Shown here: positions 49,533 through 56,389 of the stretch, piece by piece
How positions within the stretch are numbered: position 1 is the stretch's first letter
Layout of the letters: each line of letters begins with the position of its first letter
Source of the DNA: Candidatus Bathyarchaeota archaeon
GTDB taxonomy: Archaea > Thermoproteota > Bathyarchaeia > Bathyarchaeales > Bathycorpusculaceae
Assembly: GCA_963826715.1 (NCBI GenBank)
Contig: CAWGYA010000008.1
Location: 736,001-800,000, forward strand
Reading direction: 5' to 3'
Length of the DNA stretch: 64,000 nucleotides
Translations under genes and position numbers: made by a program
The notes under the pieces: model-generated
Seen by the model: the letters and a program-made list of their open reading frames with translations, nothing else
What the model was told of the DNA's origin: nothing
Databases searched by the model: none

Positions 49533-49536
49533 ACCA

Positions 49537-49565
49537 TTTTCTTTTTTCCTTTTTTTAATTTTTTA
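49537..49565 (+). terminator. Oligo-T tract terminator after cdhE
   Basis: ttttcttttttccttttttttaattttttt-like T-run immediately after the stop, typical of archaeal terminators. Confidence 0.6.
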
Positions 49566-49787
49566 GTGGTTCAGAACTTCTTTTTTAACTGCTTGGTTTT
49601 CTAGATTTTGGTGATTTTTGTTGGGTTGGTTCAGCATCTTTATTTGAGTTGTTCGTATGTCTCAACCCTGACTTGCTTTAACGTTTCTTGTGTTAAAATT
49701 ACCATAGGTTTTACTTAAATTTGTACTAAAAATTGATAAACCCCCCTTGTTTACTACATGCTTACTTAACGCGAGAAGGGAATAAAA

Positions 49788-51269
49788 ATAGGCTGCGGCA
49801 TCTTTGGTGCAATAAATTATGAAAGTCAACCCGTTTTCCCTTATATTTACTGGGGACTAAGGGCACAGAATCATCGAGGTCACCAATCGCATGGTTTCCT
49901 CACTTTCAATAATAAACAATATTTTACCTATAAAAACCTCGACCTTGTGCCGAAAGTTAAAAGCACCGCAATAACTGAATGGTTTGGGCGATTGCCTGGA
50001 CATATAGGCATAGGAAATGTTCGCTATACCACATCAGGCAAATGTGATGAAGTTTCTATACTCCAAGGCACACAACCAGTCACAGCCTCGGTGGATGGAA
50101 TCAAACTTGCGCTATCCTTCAATGGCAATATTGTGAACACTTTGCCACTTAAGAAAGAGATGAGCGAGAATTTTTCTGATTTCTACTATAACTGCGATTC
50201 TGATATCGTCTGCCACAAAATGTTACTAGCCCTCAAGCAGGGAAAAGATTTGGCGGAGGCGGCAAGGTACGTTATGGAAAGCCTAGATGGCGCGTTTTCT
50301 GTAACAGGAATAACAGGTGAGGGTGACTTTTTTGCTTTCAAAGATCCTCATGGCATAAAGCCCCTTTGTGCTGGACATGATCCTGAAGGCAAAACCTTAG
50401 CTTTTTCCTCCGAGACAGTAAGTCTTGACATGAACAGTTTTGTGCGTGATTTTGAATTAAATCCTGGAGAATTCGTGCTGGCTACCAAAGATGGCTTTAA
50501 GCGAAGCCAACTTATTAACAATCCCCGTCCAGCTTTCTGTGCTTTTGAATATGCTTACTTCGCTAGACCTGACTCACGCTTTGACGGCAAATATGTTTAT
50601 GAAATCCGCGAGGATTTTGGACGTAACATCGTAAAAGAAAACCCTGAAGTGGTTAAAGACGGTGACATTATCATGTCGGTGCCAGAAACCGGTGATGACT
50701 CCGCGATGGGGGTCCATGAAGAGTCAGGATTGCGGTGGGAACGTGCTTCTAGGCGGCATCGCTATGTTACTGAACGTGCCTTCATTTTGCTTAATCTGGA
50801 ACGGTATTCGACGATTGATAAAAAAATCAACATTTTAGGTCCCAAAGTTAAAGATAAACGTGTTATCATCACTGAAGACAGCGTAGTCCGGGGTGACACA
50901 ACCAAAGTTATAATCGAAAAGATGCGCAAGGCAGGTGCCAAAAAGGTCTATGTTTTTGTGACTTTTCCCCGCATTATAGGACCCTGTTTCTATGGCATCG
51001 ACATGTCTAGTTACGGGCAACTTATCGGCTCCCGCAACAACTCTGAAGAGATCGCTAAAATTATTGGAGCCGACGGTGTTTGTTACCAATCCATTGAGAG
51101 CTTAATTCACGCTACAGGGCAGACCGAGGATCAACTTTGTTTAGCCTGCATTACTGGTAAATATCCTACACCGTGTGCTCAGAGGATGGCTGATGCCATG
51201 AAGAGACGCTTCATAGAAGGCTATGAAGAGAAAGGCAGAATTTATGAGAACGAAGAGTCTCAGCCGTAA
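49788..51269 (+). CDS. purF: Amidophosphoribosyltransferase, probable ATA start
   Basis: 'GCGIFG...QNHRGHQSHG' lies in frame upstream of the track start at 49947. Also 'GNVRYTTSG', 'FEYAYFARPDS', 'EDSVVRGDT', 'CFYGIDM', 'CLACITG'. Confidence 0.92.
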   Translation: MGCGIFGAINYESQPVFPYIYWGLRAQNHRGHQSHGFLTFNNKQYFTYKNLDLVPKVKSTAITEWFGRLPGHIGIGNVRYTTSGKCDEVSILQGTQPVTASVDGIKLALSFNGNIVNTLPLKKEMSENFSDFYYNCDSDIVCHKMLLALKQGKDLAEAARYVMESLDGAFSVTGITGEGDFFAFKDPHGIKPLCAGHDPEGKTLAFSSETVSLDMNSFVRDFELNPGEFVLATKDGFKRSQLINNPRPAFCAFEYAYFARPDSRFDGKYVYEIREDFGRNIVKENPEVVKDGDIIMSVPETGDDSAMGVHEESGLRWERASRRHRYVTERAFILLNLERYSTIDKKINILGPKVKDKRVIITEDSVVRGDTTKVIIEKMRKAGAKKVYVFVTFPRIIGPCFYGIDMSSYGQLIGSRNNSEEIAKIIGADGVCYQSIESLIHATGQTEDQLCLACITGKYPTPCAQRMADAMKRRFIEGYEEKGRIYENEESQP

Positions 51270-51317
51270 TTGCTTTAAGCGTTCCCTCACAGAATAGTGC
51301 AGTAACGGTGTATCTGG

Positions 51318-52733
51318 ATGGAAAAGACAGGTGTACTCTTGGTTTCTTATGGCGCACGAGAAGTCGCAATGGCAGATGCGCTTCTTCGCAGTCCAAACCA
51401 TCAAGTTGAGCTCTATGTTGCTGACAAACAACGCAATCCGTTTAACGCCAAACATGCCACTAAACACGTGGTAATTCCTGGTCTTGATGTGCATGAAATT
51501 TGTAAATTCGCGCAAACTAACAAGGATCATCTTGATTTTGTTTTAGTAGGATCTGAGAATCCAATAATTAAAGGCATTCGGGACCTCATTGAAGAGAAAG
51601 TCGGCATACCTGTTATATGCCCAAAAAAAGCTTATGCCATTGAAGAGAGCAAAGTTGCTCAACGTCTGCTCTTTGAGGAGATTGCTCCGGAAGCTAATCC
51701 CAGATTTCAAGTTTTTGACCCTGCAAACTACAACTCAACTTCTGATGTTAAATCTGCTGTCTACAAGTGGCTAGATGAGCTTGATAATCAAGCTGTTGTG
51801 AAACCGGATAGACCTGCCTTGGGCAAGGGTGTGGGTGTTTGGGGTGATCATTTTGCTAGCCGAGAGGAGCTTTTTGATCATTTTCTCTCCAGCTTCAAAT
51901 TTGGCTCCGTTCTTATCGAGGAGAAAGTGCCAGGTGAGGAATCTAGTTGCATGGGCTTTTCTGATGGTAAACACTTTATTCCTTTGCCTGATACTCGCGA
52001 CTATAAACGTGCCTTCAACGGTGATCAAGGTCCGAACACCGGTGGAATGGGTTCCTATAAGGATAGTGAAGATTACTTGCCGTTTCTCACTTTGGCTGAT
52101 CGTGAAGCAGAATTGGCGTTAGCCAATAGAGTGTTTTGTGGTTGGAAAAAGAAAATTTCAGATGATACTGCTCTTCGGGGTGTGCCGCTTTATCTTGCTT
52201 TCATGCATACGGGTAGAGGCATTAAGATTTTGGAAATCAACAGTCGCCCGGGTGATCCTGAAATCATGAACCTCCTACCCGTTATCGAAGATGACTTTGT
52301 TGATGTTTGTCTTAAAATGGTGGAAGGGAACTTGATGGGTGTTGCAATGGAGCAGGCGGCGACGGTTTTAACCTACAAGGTTCCAGCAGATTACGGTGGA
52401 TACGCAAATGTTTACCCCACTTTGGTGGATAAAATCGCTGTTGATAGTCCAGTTGATCTGTCCAAGGCTGAAGCGTTGACAAAGAAATATGGCGACAACA
52501 TTCGCATCTATCCGGGCTCAATGGAAGTTCGTGGTGGTAAAAATTATGCCCTGAAATCCCGTGCTATAGGTCTTTTGGGGATCGGTGATTCTATTGAGGA
52601 AGCTCGCCAAATCAGCCAGGAGGGTGCTAAGGCCATAAGTGGTGGGGCGCTTTGGAACCGAACTGACATCGCTACAGGGCAGCATATTTCTAAAAGTATC
52701 CGTCACATGGAGCAACTGAGATGCAAAGCATAA
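51318..52733 (+). CDS. purD: Phosphoribosylamine--glycine ligase
   Basis: 'GARE', 'IEESK', 'VVKPD..ALGKGV', 'DYKRAFNGDQGPNTGGMGS', 'EINSRPGDPE', 'RTDI'. Confidence 0.93.
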   Translation: MEKTGVLLVSYGAREVAMADALLRSPNHQVELYVADKQRNPFNAKHATKHVVIPGLDVHEICKFAQTNKDHLDFVLVGSENPIIKGIRDLIEEKVGIPVICPKKAYAIEESKVAQRLLFEEIAPEANPRFQVFDPANYNSTSDVKSAVYKWLDELDNQAVVKPDRPALGKGVGVWGDHFASREELFDHFLSSFKFGSVLIEEKVPGEESSCMGFSDGKHFIPLPDTRDYKRAFNGDQGPNTGGMGSYKDSEDYLPFLTLADREAELALANRVFCGWKKKISDDTALRGVPLYLAFMHTGRGIKILEINSRPGDPEIMNLLPVIEDDFVDVCLKMVEGNLMGVAMEQAATVLTYKVPADYGGYANVYPTLVDKIAVDSPVDLSKAEALTKKYGDNIRIYPGSMEVRGGKNYALKSRAIGLLGIGDSIEEARQISQEGAKAISGGALWNRTDIATGQHISKSIRHMEQLRCKA

Positions 52734-53812
52734 AGAAAATTGTTGTTTCGGACTGTGAGGGTCCAATATCTAAAAATGATAATGCCTATGAACTTTCGGC
52801 GCATTTCATTCCAGATGGAGATAAACTCTTTGCTAACATAAGCAAGTATGATGATGTTCTTGCAGAGGTGCTGCATAGGCCAAATTATGCTGCGGGTAGT
52901 ACTCTGAAGCTGATTTTGCCTTTCTTTAAAGCCTATGATGCGACTGATCGGCAAATCGAGGATTATTCAGCCCAAAACATCCTTCTTATCCCACAAACAA
53001 AAGATACTATTAGGCACATGCAGGAGTACGCCGAAGTGTTCATCGTCAGCACAAGCTATGTGCACTACATAAATGCCCTCTGCAAAGCGATTGATTTTCC
53101 AATTAACCACACATATTGCACAAAAGTAGCTCTCGACGCCTATAGTATAACGCCTGAGGAGAAGGTGCTTTTAAAGGAGATTGGGACAGAAATCTCTAAA
53201 ATGCCTCTCATCGAAATACCTGTCAACGCGAAAACTGAGGCTGATTTTTCAGATGCCGATCAAGCATTAATCAAGCGGTTAGACGAAATCTTTTGGGAAA
53301 TACTTCCTAAATTGAGTGTGGGTAAATTGCTTTCTGAAGTAAAGACGGTGGGTGGCGAACAGAAGGCTGAAGCCATCAAGGATGTTGTAAATCGGTTAGG
53401 CATGAGGTTCTCTGAAGTCATGTATGTTGGTGATAGTATAACAGATGTTGAAGCCTTTAAGTTGGTGCGCAAGTTTGGTGGGTTAGCTGTGTCTTTTAAT
53501 GGCAACAGTTATGCTGTTCGGAACGCCGATGTCGCTATAATGTCTGAGGGTAACTTGGTTACGGCTTTGCTTGCTGATCGCTTCTGTAGACTTGGAAAAG
53601 AGCAAACATTAAAGGCGCTTTCATATTGGTGTAAATCTGCGGTTGAACAGAGTGGCGTAAGTATTGATCTTTTAAGGCAGCTCTATGCGATTTATCCTGG
53701 GGCGCTTCCCAGAGTTGAATTGGTAACGTTGCATAATGTTGATGGTCTTGTTAGGGAGAGTGCTGAATTCCGCAGAACTGTTAGAGGAGTAGCAATAGGG
53801 AGACTTGGATAA
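52721..53812 (+). CDS. HAD-superfamily hydrolase (COG4030 / EhaR-like)
   Basis: 'SDCEGPISKNDNAYEL', 'STSY', 'KAEA', 'YVGDSITD', 'SFNGNSYA', end 'VRGVAIGRLG'. Overlaps purD by 13 nt. Confidence 0.8.
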   Translation: MQSIKKIVVSDCEGPISKNDNAYELSAHFIPDGDKLFANISKYDDVLAEVLHRPNYAAGSTLKLILPFFKAYDATDRQIEDYSAQNILLIPQTKDTIRHMQEYAEVFIVSTSYVHYINALCKAIDFPINHTYCTKVALDAYSITPEEKVLLKEIGTEISKMPLIEIPVNAKTEADFSDADQALIKRLDEIFWEILPKLSVGKLLSEVKTVGGEQKAEAIKDVVNRLGMRFSEVMYVGDSITDVEAFKLVRKFGGLAVSFNGNSYAVRNADVAIMSEGNLVTALLADRFCRLGKEQTLKALSYWCKSAVEQSGVSIDLLRQLYAIYPGALPRVELVTLHNVDGLVRESAEFRRTVRGVAIGRLG

Positions 53813-53813
53813 A

Positions 53814-54719
53814 ATGGACAATAAAATTGATGATACGTTTATTGAAGCCTTTGCTGGAATATTTTGTCGCGTAATTGTAACTGCAGATGACGAGGAAACC
53901 GTCCGTAAAGCTGCTGAAGACTCAACTTCTACTCCGTCGGTTGTTATAGGTAGAACTGAGGGCGGCGTAGAAAAATACTTATCTGAAAAACAAACCCCTG
54001 ATGGACGCAAAGGGGCTATTCTTCAGTTCTGGGGTGGAATTAATCCCAAGAAAACTTTTTCTGAGTCGCTTAAAAAGTTTGAAATGGAGCTTTCTTATCG
54101 AATTCGTCAAGATATTCTGGTTAAGCCGTTCACAGCTGTTTACGATGCTCTTCCCCGAGCCGAGGGCAAGTTTGATATGATGGAGCGTGTTGGGCATTGT
54201 GGTGATGGTTTTGAATGGGTTGAAACGCGGTATGGTAGAGAAGTTATAGTTGTGCCTTTGATGGTTCCGGATTTTGTCATCGAACATTATATTGGTTATG
54301 CCCAGGGTGTGATGGGGGGTAACTTTTGGATTATGTGCTCCACAAAAGAAGCGCTTAAACAAGCGGGAAATAAAGCCCTAAAGGCTATTCATAAGGTATA
54401 TGGTGCAGTAACAACTTTTGACATATGTTCTGCAGGTTCAAAACCCGAAACCCACTTCCTGCAAATCGGGCCCACAACTAACCAATTTTACTGTCCTTCG
54501 CTCAAGGCTCGTTTGGGAAAAGAATCCCAGGTTCCTGACGGCGTTAAATATATCGCTGAAATCGTTTACGATGGTCTATCTTTAGATGCAGTTAAAGAAG
54601 CTACCAAAGTAGGCATCAAAGCAGTTCTTGATGTTGAGGGTGTGGTGCGGGTTTCTGCAGGTAATTATGGTGGCAAACTAGGTCAATATAAGATACGGTT
54701 GAGTGAGTTGTTTGTATGA
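53814..54719 (+). CDS. Formylmethanofuran:H4MPT formyltransferase-like protein (divergent Ftr paralogue)
   Basis: Ftr motifs 'DTFIEAF', 'TPDGR', 'GGNF', 'YCPSL', 'SAGNYGGKLG', with divergent 'STPSVVIGRTEGG', 'RIRQDILVKPFT' and 'HCGDG'. Confidence 0.88.
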   Translation: MDNKIDDTFIEAFAGIFCRVIVTADDEETVRKAAEDSTSTPSVVIGRTEGGVEKYLSEKQTPDGRKGAILQFWGGINPKKTFSESLKKFEMELSYRIRQDILVKPFTAVYDALPRAEGKFDMMERVGHCGDGFEWVETRYGREVIVVPLMVPDFVIEHYIGYAQGVMGGNFWIMCSTKEALKQAGNKALKAIHKVYGAVTTFDICSAGSKPETHFLQIGPTTNQFYCPSLKARLGKESQVPDGVKYIAEIVYDGLSLDAVKEATKVGIKAVLDVEGVVRVSAGNYGGKLGQYKIRLSELFV

Positions 54720-55627
54720 CAAAGTTTGATGTAATTGGTTTTGGTGCACTCAACATTGACACACTTTTAAAAGTAGACAAGATTGCAGGTGCCGAGGAAG
54801 AGAGCTTTATCCGTGACTACACTGAAGCATGTGGTGGTTCAGCAGCTAACACAATAGTTGGCTTGGCTAGATTGGGTTGTAACGTAGGTTTTGTAGGCAA
54901 AGTTGCTGATGACCCTGAGGGGCAACTTCAAATTGACTGCTTCAAAGCTGAAGGCGTGGACACTGACGGTCTTATTCATTCGGCAAAAGGCAAAAGCGGT
55001 GTCTGCTTGGGGTTTGTTGACAAGAAAGGTGCGCGTGCACTCTATATCAACCCCGGGGTCAACGATTCAATAGAATTTCGAGAGTTAAAATCCACATATA
55101 TTTCTCAAACCCAAATCCTGCATCTATCGTCCTTTGTTGGAGAAAAATCTTTCAGATCGCAAAAGAAGCTCTTGAGCTATCTACCTGACGGCATAAAAAT
55201 CAGCTTTGATCCAGGTGCCCTATACGCTCAGAGAGGCTTTGCAGCTATTGAACCAATCATTCAAAATTCTTTTGTTATGATGCCTAACTCTCTTGAACTT
55301 GAACTAATAACTGGTGAAAGTGACATACCTAAAGGCGCTGAATTGCTGCTTGGTATGGGTGTTAAAATTGTCGCTGTCAAACTTGGTGCCAAAGGATGCT
55401 ACGTTACCAACGGTCAAGAGAAGGGCATAGTAGGACCCTTCAAAGTCCAAGCGGTTGATACAACTGGCGCTGGAGATGCCTTTAATGCAGGTTTCCTGTA
55501 TGGTCTACTTAACGATAAGGCTCTCTTCGAATGTGGCAGATTGGGTAATTTTGTTGCTTCTAGAAGCGTAATTAGGATGGGGGCTCGGGAAGGCTTGCCG
55601 CACAAAGAGGATTTATCAAGAGTCTAG
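54716..55627 (+). CDS. PfkB/ribokinase family kinase
   Basis: 'GGSAANT', 'SFDPG', 'VKLGAKG', 'VDTTGAGDAFNAG'. ATGA overlap with the Ftr-like gene. Confidence 0.92.
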   Translation: MTKFDVIGFGALNIDTLLKVDKIAGAEEESFIRDYTEACGGSAANTIVGLARLGCNVGFVGKVADDPEGQLQIDCFKAEGVDTDGLIHSAKGKSGVCLGFVDKKGARALYINPGVNDSIEFRELKSTYISQTQILHLSSFVGEKSFRSQKKLLSYLPDGIKISFDPGALYAQRGFAAIEPIIQNSFVMMPNSLELELITGESDIPKGAELLLGMGVKIVAVKLGAKGCYVTNGQEKGIVGPFKVQAVDTTGAGDAFNAGFLYGLLNDKALFECGRLGNFVASRSVIRMGAREGLPHKEDLSRV

Positions 55628-55711
55628 TCATCTCGGAAAAGGTTGATTAATATTTTTCTTGTAGGGTTACGTTGGAAATGGTTAGTTATAATTTAAAAGA
55701 GGAAGGTGAAT

Positions 55712-56170
55712 TTATTGTTCGCCGGTTATGGAAATTTGGACGCTAAAGTTTGTTACGTCGGTTATGCTAGATGAGACTGTTAGAGTTATGGTTGCGGTGG
55801 TTACTTGACCTGGTGTAAGTACTGTGTTTTCTCTGTTCCAAGTTATTATTATTGGTCCATTAGCGCTTGACGGGTTCCAACTTGATGTTGCCATACTTAG
55901 TGAAAGTGATACTCCAGCGCCAGTATTTTTAACATAGATTGTTTGTGTCGTACTTTCTCCCGGTGTTAGATTTCCCCAACTAATTGTGCTTAGCGTAGTG
56001 GTACATGCACTGTCAGAGTAAACCCCGAGATTTGCTGATACATCAACTGTTCCAGTTGTGGAGAGGTTTCGATTTGTACTTAAGGCTGCGTAAGTTGTGG
56101 CTGTGAGAACAGTTGCTACTACAATTAATACTGTTATGCTCAAAACGATTTTTTTATTTGTAAAACCCAT
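55712..56170 (-). CDS. Small secreted Thr/Ser-rich beta protein (possible fibre subunit)
   Basis: Signal peptide 'NKKIVLSITVLIVVATVLTATTYAAL'; 'WGNLTPGESTTQTIYVKNTG'; no C-terminal anchor. Confidence 0.7.
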   Translation of the reverse strand: MGFTNKKIVLSITVLIVVATVLTATTYAALSTNRNLSTTGTVDVSANLGVYSDSACTTTLSTISWGNLTPGESTTQTIYVKNTGAGVSLSLSMATSSWNPSSANGPIIITWNRENTVLTPGQVTTATITLTVSSSITDVTNFSVQISITGEQ

Positions 56171-56389
56171 ACTTATCACATGTCTCAAGTGTTAATACTT
56201 GTTACAATAGACTGCTTTAAAAACTTTTGTTAAAACACGGTAAATATGCTGATTTGTACAACAATAATACTCTCTAATTTACTTTAATTTGTCATTCTTG
56301 GCTACCTCCCGTAGAACTGATTTGCTATCATTCAGAATAACTATTATATAGTTGGTAACAGCGTTAAAATTACACAGGCGATTGATTAC

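Follow-up and report, generated by a model that had tools for sequence, protein, structure and literature searches.

How does an archaeon that lacks both PurN and PurT formylate glycinamide ribonucleotide (GAR), the third step of purine synthesis? The question is raised by a 64,000-nucleotide (nt) stretch of a Candidatus Bathyarchaeota archaeon genome (assembly GCA_963826715.1, contig CAWGYA010000008.1, positions 736,001 to 800,000), referred to here as the window. On its plus strand, a co-oriented row of five genes (49788-55627) joins purF-like and purD-like genes to genes for a HAD-fold protein, a paralogue of formylmethanofuran:tetrahydromethanopterin (H4MPT) formyltransferase, here called Ftr2, and a PfkB kinase. 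We propose that this HAD-Ftr2-PfkB module probably supplies purine step 3 where methanofuran (MFR) and H4MPT are present and PurN and PurT are absent. The simplest account of the trio would be a non-orthologous displacement of PurN and PurT by an Ftr paralogue and two companions. The five genes are:

49788-51269, plus strand: purF-like amidophosphoribosyltransferase, purine step 1 (TIGR01134; apparent ATA start)
51318-52733, plus strand: purD-like GAR synthetase, purine step 2, 471 amino acids (aa; GARS_N/A/C domains)
52721-53812, plus strand: HAD-superfamily protein of the EhaR / AF1437 (PDB 1Y8A) family, 363 aa, DxE variant of motif I (HAD matches, alignment to 1Y8A_A)
53814-54719, plus strand: Ftr2, formylmethanofuran:H4MPT formyltransferase paralogue and proposed GAR formyltransferase (PF01913, PF02741, own clade)
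54716-55627, plus strand: PfkB-family ribokinase-like kinase of the EhaT type, 303 aa (PF00294 at 183 bits)

Families were assigned to the window proteins with Pfam and NCBIfam (GATase and PRTase with purF, GARS_N/A/C with purD, HAD, FTR with FTR_C, and PfkB). Together with the list of open reading frames (ORFs), these assignments agree with a preliminary description of the locus, made from the DNA letters, in every detail of its layout: five co-oriented genes, a 13-nt overlap between purD and the HAD gene (52721-52733), a HAD gene that abuts the Ftr2 gene, and a 4-nt ATGA overlap between the Ftr2 and kinase genes (54716-54719). The ATG of Ftr2 at 53814 lies one base past the HAD stop at 53812; the ORF itself spans 53805-54719 (304 aa), and an identical database protein (P0004, 301 aa) begins at this ATG. 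The three divergent Ftr motifs quoted in the preliminary description are present in the translation and kept across the Ftr2 clade. No hydrogenase gene adjoins the row among the ORFs of the window and their family scans, as had likewise been stated.

A gap at purine step 3 in the host genome

The host genome belongs to the Bathyarchaeia and consists of 8 contigs (2.64 Mb, 96% complete). The absence of purN and purT, first remarked for the window, extends to the entire genome. The PurN fold PF00551 has zero matches across it, and the best PurT match reaches 43 bits against a cut-off of 502, so that no true PurT is present. This match lies inside a 1090-aa ORF that we take to be carbamoyl-phosphate synthase CarB, a label that comes from no search. 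PurL was checked in this genome and in the neighbourhood loci described below; here it is encoded (690 bits) together with PurM and two PurP proteins, and formylglycinamide ribonucleotide (FGAR) is therefore needed and must be made. Furthermore, the genome encodes FwdA (791 bits) and a canonical Ftr (Ftr1; G000:C8:535477-536493, minus strand; 184.9 bits, compared with 148.1 for the window copy), so that formyl-MFR and formyl-H4MPT are available. Purine step 3 is thus a true pathway gap in this genome, in which PurN and PurT are absent.

Two further purine loci of the genome lie outside the window. Tandem PurP paralogues (G000:C2:429514-431637) match PF06849 with 159.6 and 151.9 bits, and the same tandem pair is found in a Bathyarchaeon with a PurT-like protein (G044); the role of second PurP copies is described as unsettled (Brown 2011). 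A PurM match (G000:C8:848224-849171) contains one in-frame TAG, and the stop-to-stop ORF comprises 283 aa (848395-849243).

Ftr2 forms a clade of its own

Ftr2 carries both Ftr lobes at full length (PF01913, 146.6 bits; PF02741, 178.6 bits). It exceeds the cut-off of the NCBIfam subfamily NF002554 (330.1, cut-off 297) and falls below that of the equivalog TIGR03119 (232.9, cut-off 292.6); pairwise scores to solved Ftr structures are 167-183 bits. A homologue search of 1.84 billion cluster representatives returned 609 at E<=0.001 and 47 at E<=1e-30. In a FastTree phylogeny of 54 full-length representatives and the genome's two Ftr proteins (56 sequences), the window Ftr2 and ten representatives form a clade apart from canonical Ftr/FhcD, the latter including the genome's own Ftr1. 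Close relatives of Ftr2 bear the label Candidatus Bathyarchaeota. A profile of the Ftr2 clade (A1), applied to 151 Bathyarchaeia, separates the two proteins bimodally, with Ftr2 at >=340 bits, Ftr1 at <=273 bits and an empty gap between them. The preliminary description had made its proposal depend on the window copy being neither the genome's sole ftr nor a member of the canonical group; a separate canonical ftr exists, and Ftr2 stands in a distinct clade.

Residue E249 of Ftr2 aligns with the Glu of YEIVING in 1FTR and of LEIVID in 6S6Y_D and is invariant in the clade alignments A1 and A5. This Glu is described as stabilising the oxyanion in Ftr/FhcD (PMC6926001). As the catalytic residue is aligned and invariant, Ftr2 probably keeps formyl-transfer chemistry. 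In a descriptive comparison of the alignments, C129 (F in Ftr1) and P220 (A in Ftr1) emerge as signature residues of Ftr2. Long Ftr-containing representatives have no purine enzymes joined to them; they bear amidohydrolase or GXGXG parts, and we take them to be FwdA/FhcA- and FwdC-type proteins.

Distribution of Ftr2, PurN and PurT

The preliminary description stated that some H4MPT-using archaea lack both PurN and PurT. Such archaea are indeed documented by Brown 2011 and Chadwick 2022, which in the passages drawn on here name Archaeoglobi, Methanobacteriales, M. kandleri and ANME-1 (anaerobic methanotrophic archaea, group 1). Brown 2011 prints the order as 'Methanomicrobiales', the species being Methanobacteriales. 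According to Chadwick 2022, ANME-1, Archaeoglobales, M. kandleri and Methanothermobacter possess Ftr2; a separate section notes that PurN and PurT are missing from ANME-1, Archaeoglobales and Methanobacteriales, and in these passages the two facts are unlinked. By these reports, the taxa named as having neither PurN nor PurT are also the ones with Ftr2.

We compared the occurrence of Ftr2 with that of the two known enzymes in several genome samples. A set of 39 diverse Ftr2-bearing genomes spans Bathyarchaeia, Methanobacteriaceae, Methanophagales, Methanosarcinales, Methanocellales, Archaeoglobaceae, Alkanophaga, Hadarchaeota, Hydrothermarchaeota, Odinarchaeota and Promethearchaeota. None of them has PurT over the cut-off, and three have PurN over it (two Promethearchaeota and one uncultured archaeon). 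Among 151 Bathyarchaeia of at least 85% completeness, 59 carry Ftr2, and PurN over the cut-off is found in 0 of these 59; the nearest cases are a 101-bit PurN-like match in G154 and a 175-bit PurT-like match in G040. The remaining 92 comprise 22 genomes with PurN, 41 with a sub-threshold PurN-like match (mostly from family f18, about 90-105 bits), 10 with a PurT-like match (224-450 bits) and 19 with none, so that 73 of the 92 hold a match to PurN, a PurN-like or a PurT-like protein. Even the single family f11 is mixed, with Ftr2 but no PurT-like protein in two genomes, a PurT-like protein and Ftr1 as the sole Ftr in six, PurN in one, and none of Ftr2, PurN or a PurT-like protein in one.

The phylum of the ANME-1 metagenome-assembled genome (MAG) G016 was sampled with 201 genomes. 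Ftr2 occurs in 83, of which four have PurN, none has PurT and 79 have neither. In the 118 genomes lacking Ftr2, PurN is present in 101, strong PurT (437-459 bits) in 10 more, and neither in seven, one of which carries a piece of Ftr2 at the edge of a contig. Of 151 genomes sampled from the phylum (Methanobacteriota) of the Methanobacteriaceae MAG G012, 149 have Ftr2. The phylogenetic profile proposed in the preliminary description thus yields a nearly mutually exclusive distribution of Ftr2 and PurN/PurT across samples, and frequent coexistence of Ftr2 with these enzymes is not seen (4/83 and 3/39). Counts are given without p-values, as kinship among the genomes makes Fisher tests invalid as probabilities.

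The two companion proteins follow the same distribution. The HAD protein is present in 35 of the 39 diverse Ftr2 genomes and, in the 201-genome sample, in 78 of 83 genomes with Ftr2 versus 9 of 118 without it. By our own reading of the table, a kinase orthologue (E<=1e-40) accompanies Ftr2 in 82 of 83 genomes and occurs in 11 of the 118 others, and PurT-type genomes hold only a kinase paralogue of 107-129 bits.

The PurN-like gene of family f18 encodes about 275 aa and covers model positions 1-156 (G179:C37:7264-7818, G173:C65:1707-2261). Most f18 genomes have no other PurN-like gene; in G148, G184, G083 and G124 it forms a tandem with a true PurN gene. Its product may be a GAR formyltransferase of divergent sequence or an enzyme of the PurU kind.

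Gene neighbourhoods

For the neighbourhoods, we used the best 80 of 587 confirmed Ftr2 relatives, with one genome per prokaryotic species, and searched their ORFs with the window proteins. The 80 loci comprise 51 of the Bathyarchaeia type (50 by record title, and one titled Nitrososphaerota, L040) and 29 others. The complete co-oriented row purF-purD-HAD-Ftr2-PfkB is intact in 38 of the 51 Bathyarchaeia-type loci (39 when L052, with fragmented genes, is counted), at least purD-HAD-Ftr2-PfkB in 43, and the HAD-Ftr2-PfkB trio in 47; loci without the full row mostly stop at a contig edge. In 37 of the 51, purL also lies in the locus, mostly with purM, convergent and about 0.8 kb downstream. Hydrogenase genes adjoin none of the 51 loci, the neighbours being purF, purD, purL and purM.

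The PurN-type Bathyarchaeia G086 and G121 carry a row purL-purF-purD-purN...purM, in which purN starts 16-18 nt past purD. As purN directly follows purD there, in the slot that the trio fills here, the arrangement points to displacement in place.

Among the 29 other loci, four carry the trio without pur genes (L074, from Methanobacteriaceae; L075; L081; and L080, labelled Bacteroidaceae), and in one (L101) purM and purP are oriented divergently to Ftr2, the only pur linkage in this group; the remainder have Ftr2 by itself. In L074, the trio lies 3' of NADH-dehydrogenase-like, NiFe large-subunit and polyferredoxin genes. The linkage to pur genes that the preliminary description suggested looking for is therefore kept across Bathyarchaeia and rare elsewhere. 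In two genomes (G259, G216) the gene order is HAD-PfkB-Ftr2. The contig of L080 holds an archaeal HAD-Ftr2-PfkB trio under a Bacteroidaceae title, and its genome groups with the Methanobacteriaceae-centred sample (G017); the bin is probably mislabelled or contaminated.

These neighbourhoods bear on the alternative that Ftr2 is a second isoenzyme of the one-carbon (C1) pathway, or the trio an accessory of the Eha hydrogenase, with the anticorrelation arising from shared ancestry of folate-free lineages. In Methanothermobacter the trio is cotranscribed with ehaA-R, EhaS and EhaT being Ftr-like and ribokinase-like proteins (Kaster 2011); together with locus L074, this confirms the statement in the preliminary description that a similar trio is annotated ehaR/ehaS/ehaT at the end of the eha operon. 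An isoenzyme would also fit the subfamily score of Ftr2 (330 versus 297), its kept catalytic Glu and the missing pur linkage in most loci outside Bathyarchaeia. On the other hand, pur genes instead of hydrogenase genes stand beside the window row and the 51 Bathyarchaeia-type loci, and purN fills the same operon slot in relatives. Furthermore, folate-free genomes of the PurT type are also without Ftr2 (0/12 strong-PurT genomes in the phylum sample; 0/10 Bathyarchaeia with a PurT-like match of >=224 bits), and the state switches inside the single family f11. The link to Eha is also compatible with a purine role of the trio. Lie and co-workers are said to have proposed in 2012 that Eha refills formyl-MFR drawn off for biosynthesis; refilling of formyl-MFR withdrawn for purines would explain why the trio rides on the eha operon of Methanobacteriales. 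We regard the hydrogenase or isoenzyme alternative as very unlikely.

The HAD protein and the PfkB kinase

The HAD protein aligns with 1Y8A_A over residues 9-301 (112 bits). Generic HAD family matches span the C-terminal motifs only, and all 11 NCBIfam matches lie below their cut-offs (best 35.4, cut-off 45). All four catalytic motifs are present: the Asp nucleophile with an acidic residue at +2, Ser/Thr, Lys and the acidic pair. Motif I reads D11-x-E13-G-P, a DxE variant, and the acidic-pair motif reads D238-S-I-T-D242. Across 19 sequences from four labelled groups, D11, E13, G14, P15, S110-T111-S112, K215 and D238...D242 are invariant. From these residues, the protein is probably an active HAD enzyme with Glu at +2, acting as a phosphohydrolase. 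One Atlas cluster of the family is automatically named EhaR. No HAD homologues of 637-2000 aa were found at E<=1e-15 in a search for fusions, a result that is weak evidence. Atlas clusters whose language-model features are very close to the HAD protein come mostly from Thermodesulfobacteriota and other bacteria, and the EhaR/AF1437 family may reach into bacteria.

The kinase matches PF00294 with 183.4 bits and lies below every NCBIfam equivalog cut-off, the best match being ribokinase TIGR02152 (167.1, cut-off 299.65). It keeps the NxD and GG..N sugar-binding motifs and the catalytic DTTGAGD motif; N13, D15, G40, G41, N45 and D248-D254 are invariant in 16 sequences. A complex prediction for the Ftr2, PfkB and HAD proteins scored 0.00, and we draw no conclusion about binding from it in either direction.

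All nine loci inspected in the G016 phylum sample have the HAD and PfkB genes side by side, slightly overlapping or narrowly spaced, with Ftr2 elsewhere; the neighbours of the pair (Nre, S-adenosylmethionine synthetase, PhoU and others) are uninformative. This autonomous, translationally coupled pair raises the alternative that the trio works in another ribose-phosphate, nucleoside or cofactor pathway, for example in salvaging or repairing ribosyl intermediates that have lost their phosphate or in carrier synthesis, and that the true GAR formyltransferase is another protein. The pair also occurs without Ftr2 in four PurN genomes, the kinase is generically ribokinase-like, and direct formyl transfer would on paper require no phosphatase plus kinase. 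Such a scheme, however, requires a second enzyme with the same distribution as Ftr2, and it leaves the purD-adjacent position and the replacement in the purN slot unexplained. We judge it unlikely.

As a general candidate for the missing enzyme, a PurP paralogue is rejected on copy numbers, the genomes G012 and G016, without PurN and PurT, having one and zero copies, and the PurT-like G044 having two.

Proposed reaction

The view put forward in the preliminary description, a purine module with a GAR-formylating Ftr paralogue, is supported by the gap in the pathway, the separate clade, the phylogenetic profile and the linkage in Bathyarchaeia. We infer its reaction, donor, acceptor and order of steps from sequence comparison. 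PurF and PurD would produce GAR, and Ftr2 would shift a formyl group from formyl-MFR or N5-formyl-H4MPT to the primary amino group of the glycinamide, the product FGAR going to PurL. With lower confidence, the HAD protein and the kinase would work at the 5'-position of the ribose in substrate and product, as a phosphatase before and a kinase after formyl transfer; the kinase step would cost one ATP, equal to the cost of PurT. Alternatively, Ftr2 may act directly on GAR, with the HAD/kinase pair in a supporting role. Hydrolysis of formyl-MFR is given as -22.9 kJ/mol, and Ftr transfers run near equilibrium (PMC6926001); as GAR offers a primary amine, its formylation by Ftr2 is chemically plausible. 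In Methanosphaera stadtmanae, purine C8 derives from C2 of acetate even with formate present (Brown 2011), as is expected of a carrier-bound C1 donor and not of a formate ligase.

For the two companions, we can name a single scheme that uses all three conserved activities. In this riboside shunt, the HAD protein would dephosphorylate GAR, Ftr2 would formylate glycinamide riboside, and the kinase would rephosphorylate the product to FGAR; the order matches the HAD-Ftr2-PfkB gene order in two distant lineages. Adenosine kinase phosphorylates 5-aminoimidazole-4-carboxamide (AICA)-riboside, a precedent for a PfkB kinase that returns a purine-pathway riboside to its 5'-phosphate. Against the shunt stands the autonomy of the HAD-PfkB pair, which persists in four PurN genomes, and we put the shunt forward as a tentative possibility.

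Several points weigh against a role of the module in step 3. The proposal draws on gene content, operon structure, clade separation, complementary distribution, co-inheritance and conserved residues, which are observed, and its support is comparative throughout. Outside Bathyarchaeia, Ftr2 stands beside pur genes in only 1 of 29 loci, and a Pfam tally of 129 neighbour ORFs of lone Ftr2 from 26 loci (omitting one 3128-aa ORF of L088) gave no pur enrichment, the top families being TPR, beta-lactamase-fold and methyltransferase. The Methanobacteriaceae trio belongs to the eha operon. Ftr2 and PurN occur together in the 4/83 and 3/39 genomes noted above, and Ftr2 is reported from PurN-bearing ANME-2a/b (Chadwick 2022). 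The four PurN-bearing genomes that keep HAD-PfkB without Ftr2 fit poorly with a pair acting solely around Ftr2. Conversely, 19/92 and 7/118 genomes without Ftr2 also lack PurN and PurT, and these either use a further solution or are incomplete assemblies. The PurN and PurT tallies cover the diverse set, the Bathyarchaeia and the phylum sample of G016; related genomes are non-independent, and the phylum samples carry no taxon labels from which independent switches could be counted. Finally, the passage of Brown 2011 cited here states that formyl-H4MPT (N10) is not considered a donor of formyl groups, and a 2023 systems paper on Methanothermobacter, in the part drawn on, still takes free formate as the purine C1 source. 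The publications drawn on include PMC3261824, PMC3087415, PMC9012536 and PMC10579436. No literature was found that connects GAR formylation with an Ftr paralogue, EhaR/S/T, COG4030 or AF1437, a provisional result, as subscription journals were thinly covered and supplements excluded.

PurF, PurD and the start of purF

The PurF-like protein of the window, encoded by the sole such gene in the genome, matches model positions 1-432 of TIGR01134 with 315 bits (cut-off 350); despite this sub-threshold score, the match is full-length and the N-terminal Cys is present. The PurD-like protein, likewise a sole copy, scores 233 bits against TIGR00877, below the cut-off of 288, with an unusual P-loop and a motif that reads RPGDPE. 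The divergent PurD invites the alternative that Ftr2 formylates glycine and that a modified PurD ligates N-formylglycine to phosphoribosylamine, bypassing GAR. Its divergence is, however, untied to Ftr2: PurD reaches canonical scores in the Ftr2-bearing genomes G012 (477 bits) and G032 (518 bits) and only 212 bits in the PurN-type Bathyarchaeon G086. As PurD scores do not follow Ftr2, we reject the N-formylglycine route, which we consider extremely improbable.

The purF frame is open from 49770, and its first in-frame ATG, GTG or TTG is found only at 49947. The N-terminal Cys motif GCGIFGA is encoded upstream of 49947, and codon 49788 is ATA, two codons ahead of the catalytic Cys. Across the aligned loci L024-L036 and L040, the corresponding codon is ATG in L029, ATA in eight relatives and ATC in L024; no canonical in-frame start lies upstream of the ATA (window 49782-49799 and aligned loci). 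The Cys motif and the ATG of L029 at the position of the ATA make 49788 a sensible start, in line with the earlier start chosen in the preliminary description. The ATA looks like a conserved non-canonical start, which may perhaps hold translation low. More distant PurF relatives have an ATG start plus a propeptide of 7-8 residues.

In Bathyarchaeia of the PurN and PurT-like types, purD is preceded by two PurF-like ORFs in succession (L109, 4677-7464; L111, 78-2860), whereas the Ftr2-type operon has a single one. Outside the window, a 612-aa ORF (G000:C8:565151-565837) aligns with the purF model over the model's N-terminal half (positions 1-227, 118.7 bits); it probably encodes another N-terminal nucleophile (Ntn) amidotransferase such as GlmS.

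Boundaries of the locus

The row is flanked by two spacers:

49533-49787, no strand: spacer between the cdh operon and purF, with T-rich runs 3' of the cdhE stop and no ORF with a family match
55628-55711, no strand: operon end, a short spacer with a T-run at about 55653-55659, followed by a convergent gene

The 255-nt T-rich upstream spacer divides purF from cdhD and cdhE (gamma). Judged from the T-runs alone, it likely has promoter, ribosome-binding and terminator roles. The preliminary description saw in the adjacent cdh operon the C1 context of the module; cdhD and cdhE do lie directly upstream, but this adjacency is not conserved with the module. Downstream, the next ORF (55712-56188, minus strand) has no family match.

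Significance

That archaea make purines without a recognisable GAR formyltransferase is a gap that has stood for some 15 years (Brown 2011, Chadwick 2022). The candidate gene set is widespread, being found in 149/151 genomes of the Methanobacteriaceae-centred sample, 83/201 of the ANME-1-centred sample and 59/151 Bathyarchaeia. If the proposal is true, a known fold and reaction type would have been recruited as a third, non-homologous solution for a universal pathway step, alongside PurN and PurT, and C1 units bound to MFR or H4MPT would enter nucleotide synthesis directly. The riboside shunt, if it operates, would link the methanogenic/Wood-Ljungdahl C1 pool straight to purines. Three 'hydrogenase subunits', EhaR/S/T, and the structural-genomics orphan 1Y8A would be re-assigned, thousands of Ftr2 genes routinely annotated as catabolic Ftr would be corrected, and models of methanogen, ANME and Bathyarchaeia metabolism that now require free formate at step 3 would change. 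The proposal makes a documented pathway gap directly testable in Methanothermobacter or Methanococcus.

Comparison with known systems

Ftr2 shares the two-lobe fold family and the oxyanion Glu with Ftr (PDB 1FTR/2FHJ, 1M5H, 1M5S) and FhcD (6S6Y). A further likeness, predicted for Ftr2 from its sequence, would be the chemistry, in which a primary amine gives or receives the formyl group. Unlike Ftr/FhcD, Ftr2 forms a separate clade, coexists with a canonical Ftr and has its own signature residues; its distribution tracks the absence of PurN and PurT, not methanogenesis.

The HAD protein belongs to the same subfamily as AF1437 of Archaeoglobus fulgidus (PDB 1Y8A), deposited as a 'hypothetical protein', and has the same DxEGP motif I. 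The two are moderately identical, relatives outside Bathyarchaeia and Methanobacteriaceae lying at 30-37%. The kinase shares the PfkB fold and the NxD/GG..N and DTTGAGD motifs with ribokinase and differs from it in its sub-equivalog score.

As a whole, the trio has its closest counterpart in EhaR/EhaS/EhaT of Methanothermobacter, with which it has the three families and their order in common. In contrast to the eha-type locus, the Bathyarchaeia trio follows purF-purD with no hydrogenase near; in the phylum of G016, the HAD-PfkB pair and Ftr2 are often unlinked. With the folate-dependent PurN and the formate- and ATP-dependent PurT, Ftr2 shares the proposed step and, with PurN, also the operon slot. 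It has no sequence relationship to either enzyme, and its distribution and theirs are nearly mutually exclusive. The Ftr2 module would further differ from both in drawing on a methanogenic C1 carrier as donor, instead of formyl-tetrahydrofolate or formate, and it brings with it two extra co-inherited enzymes.

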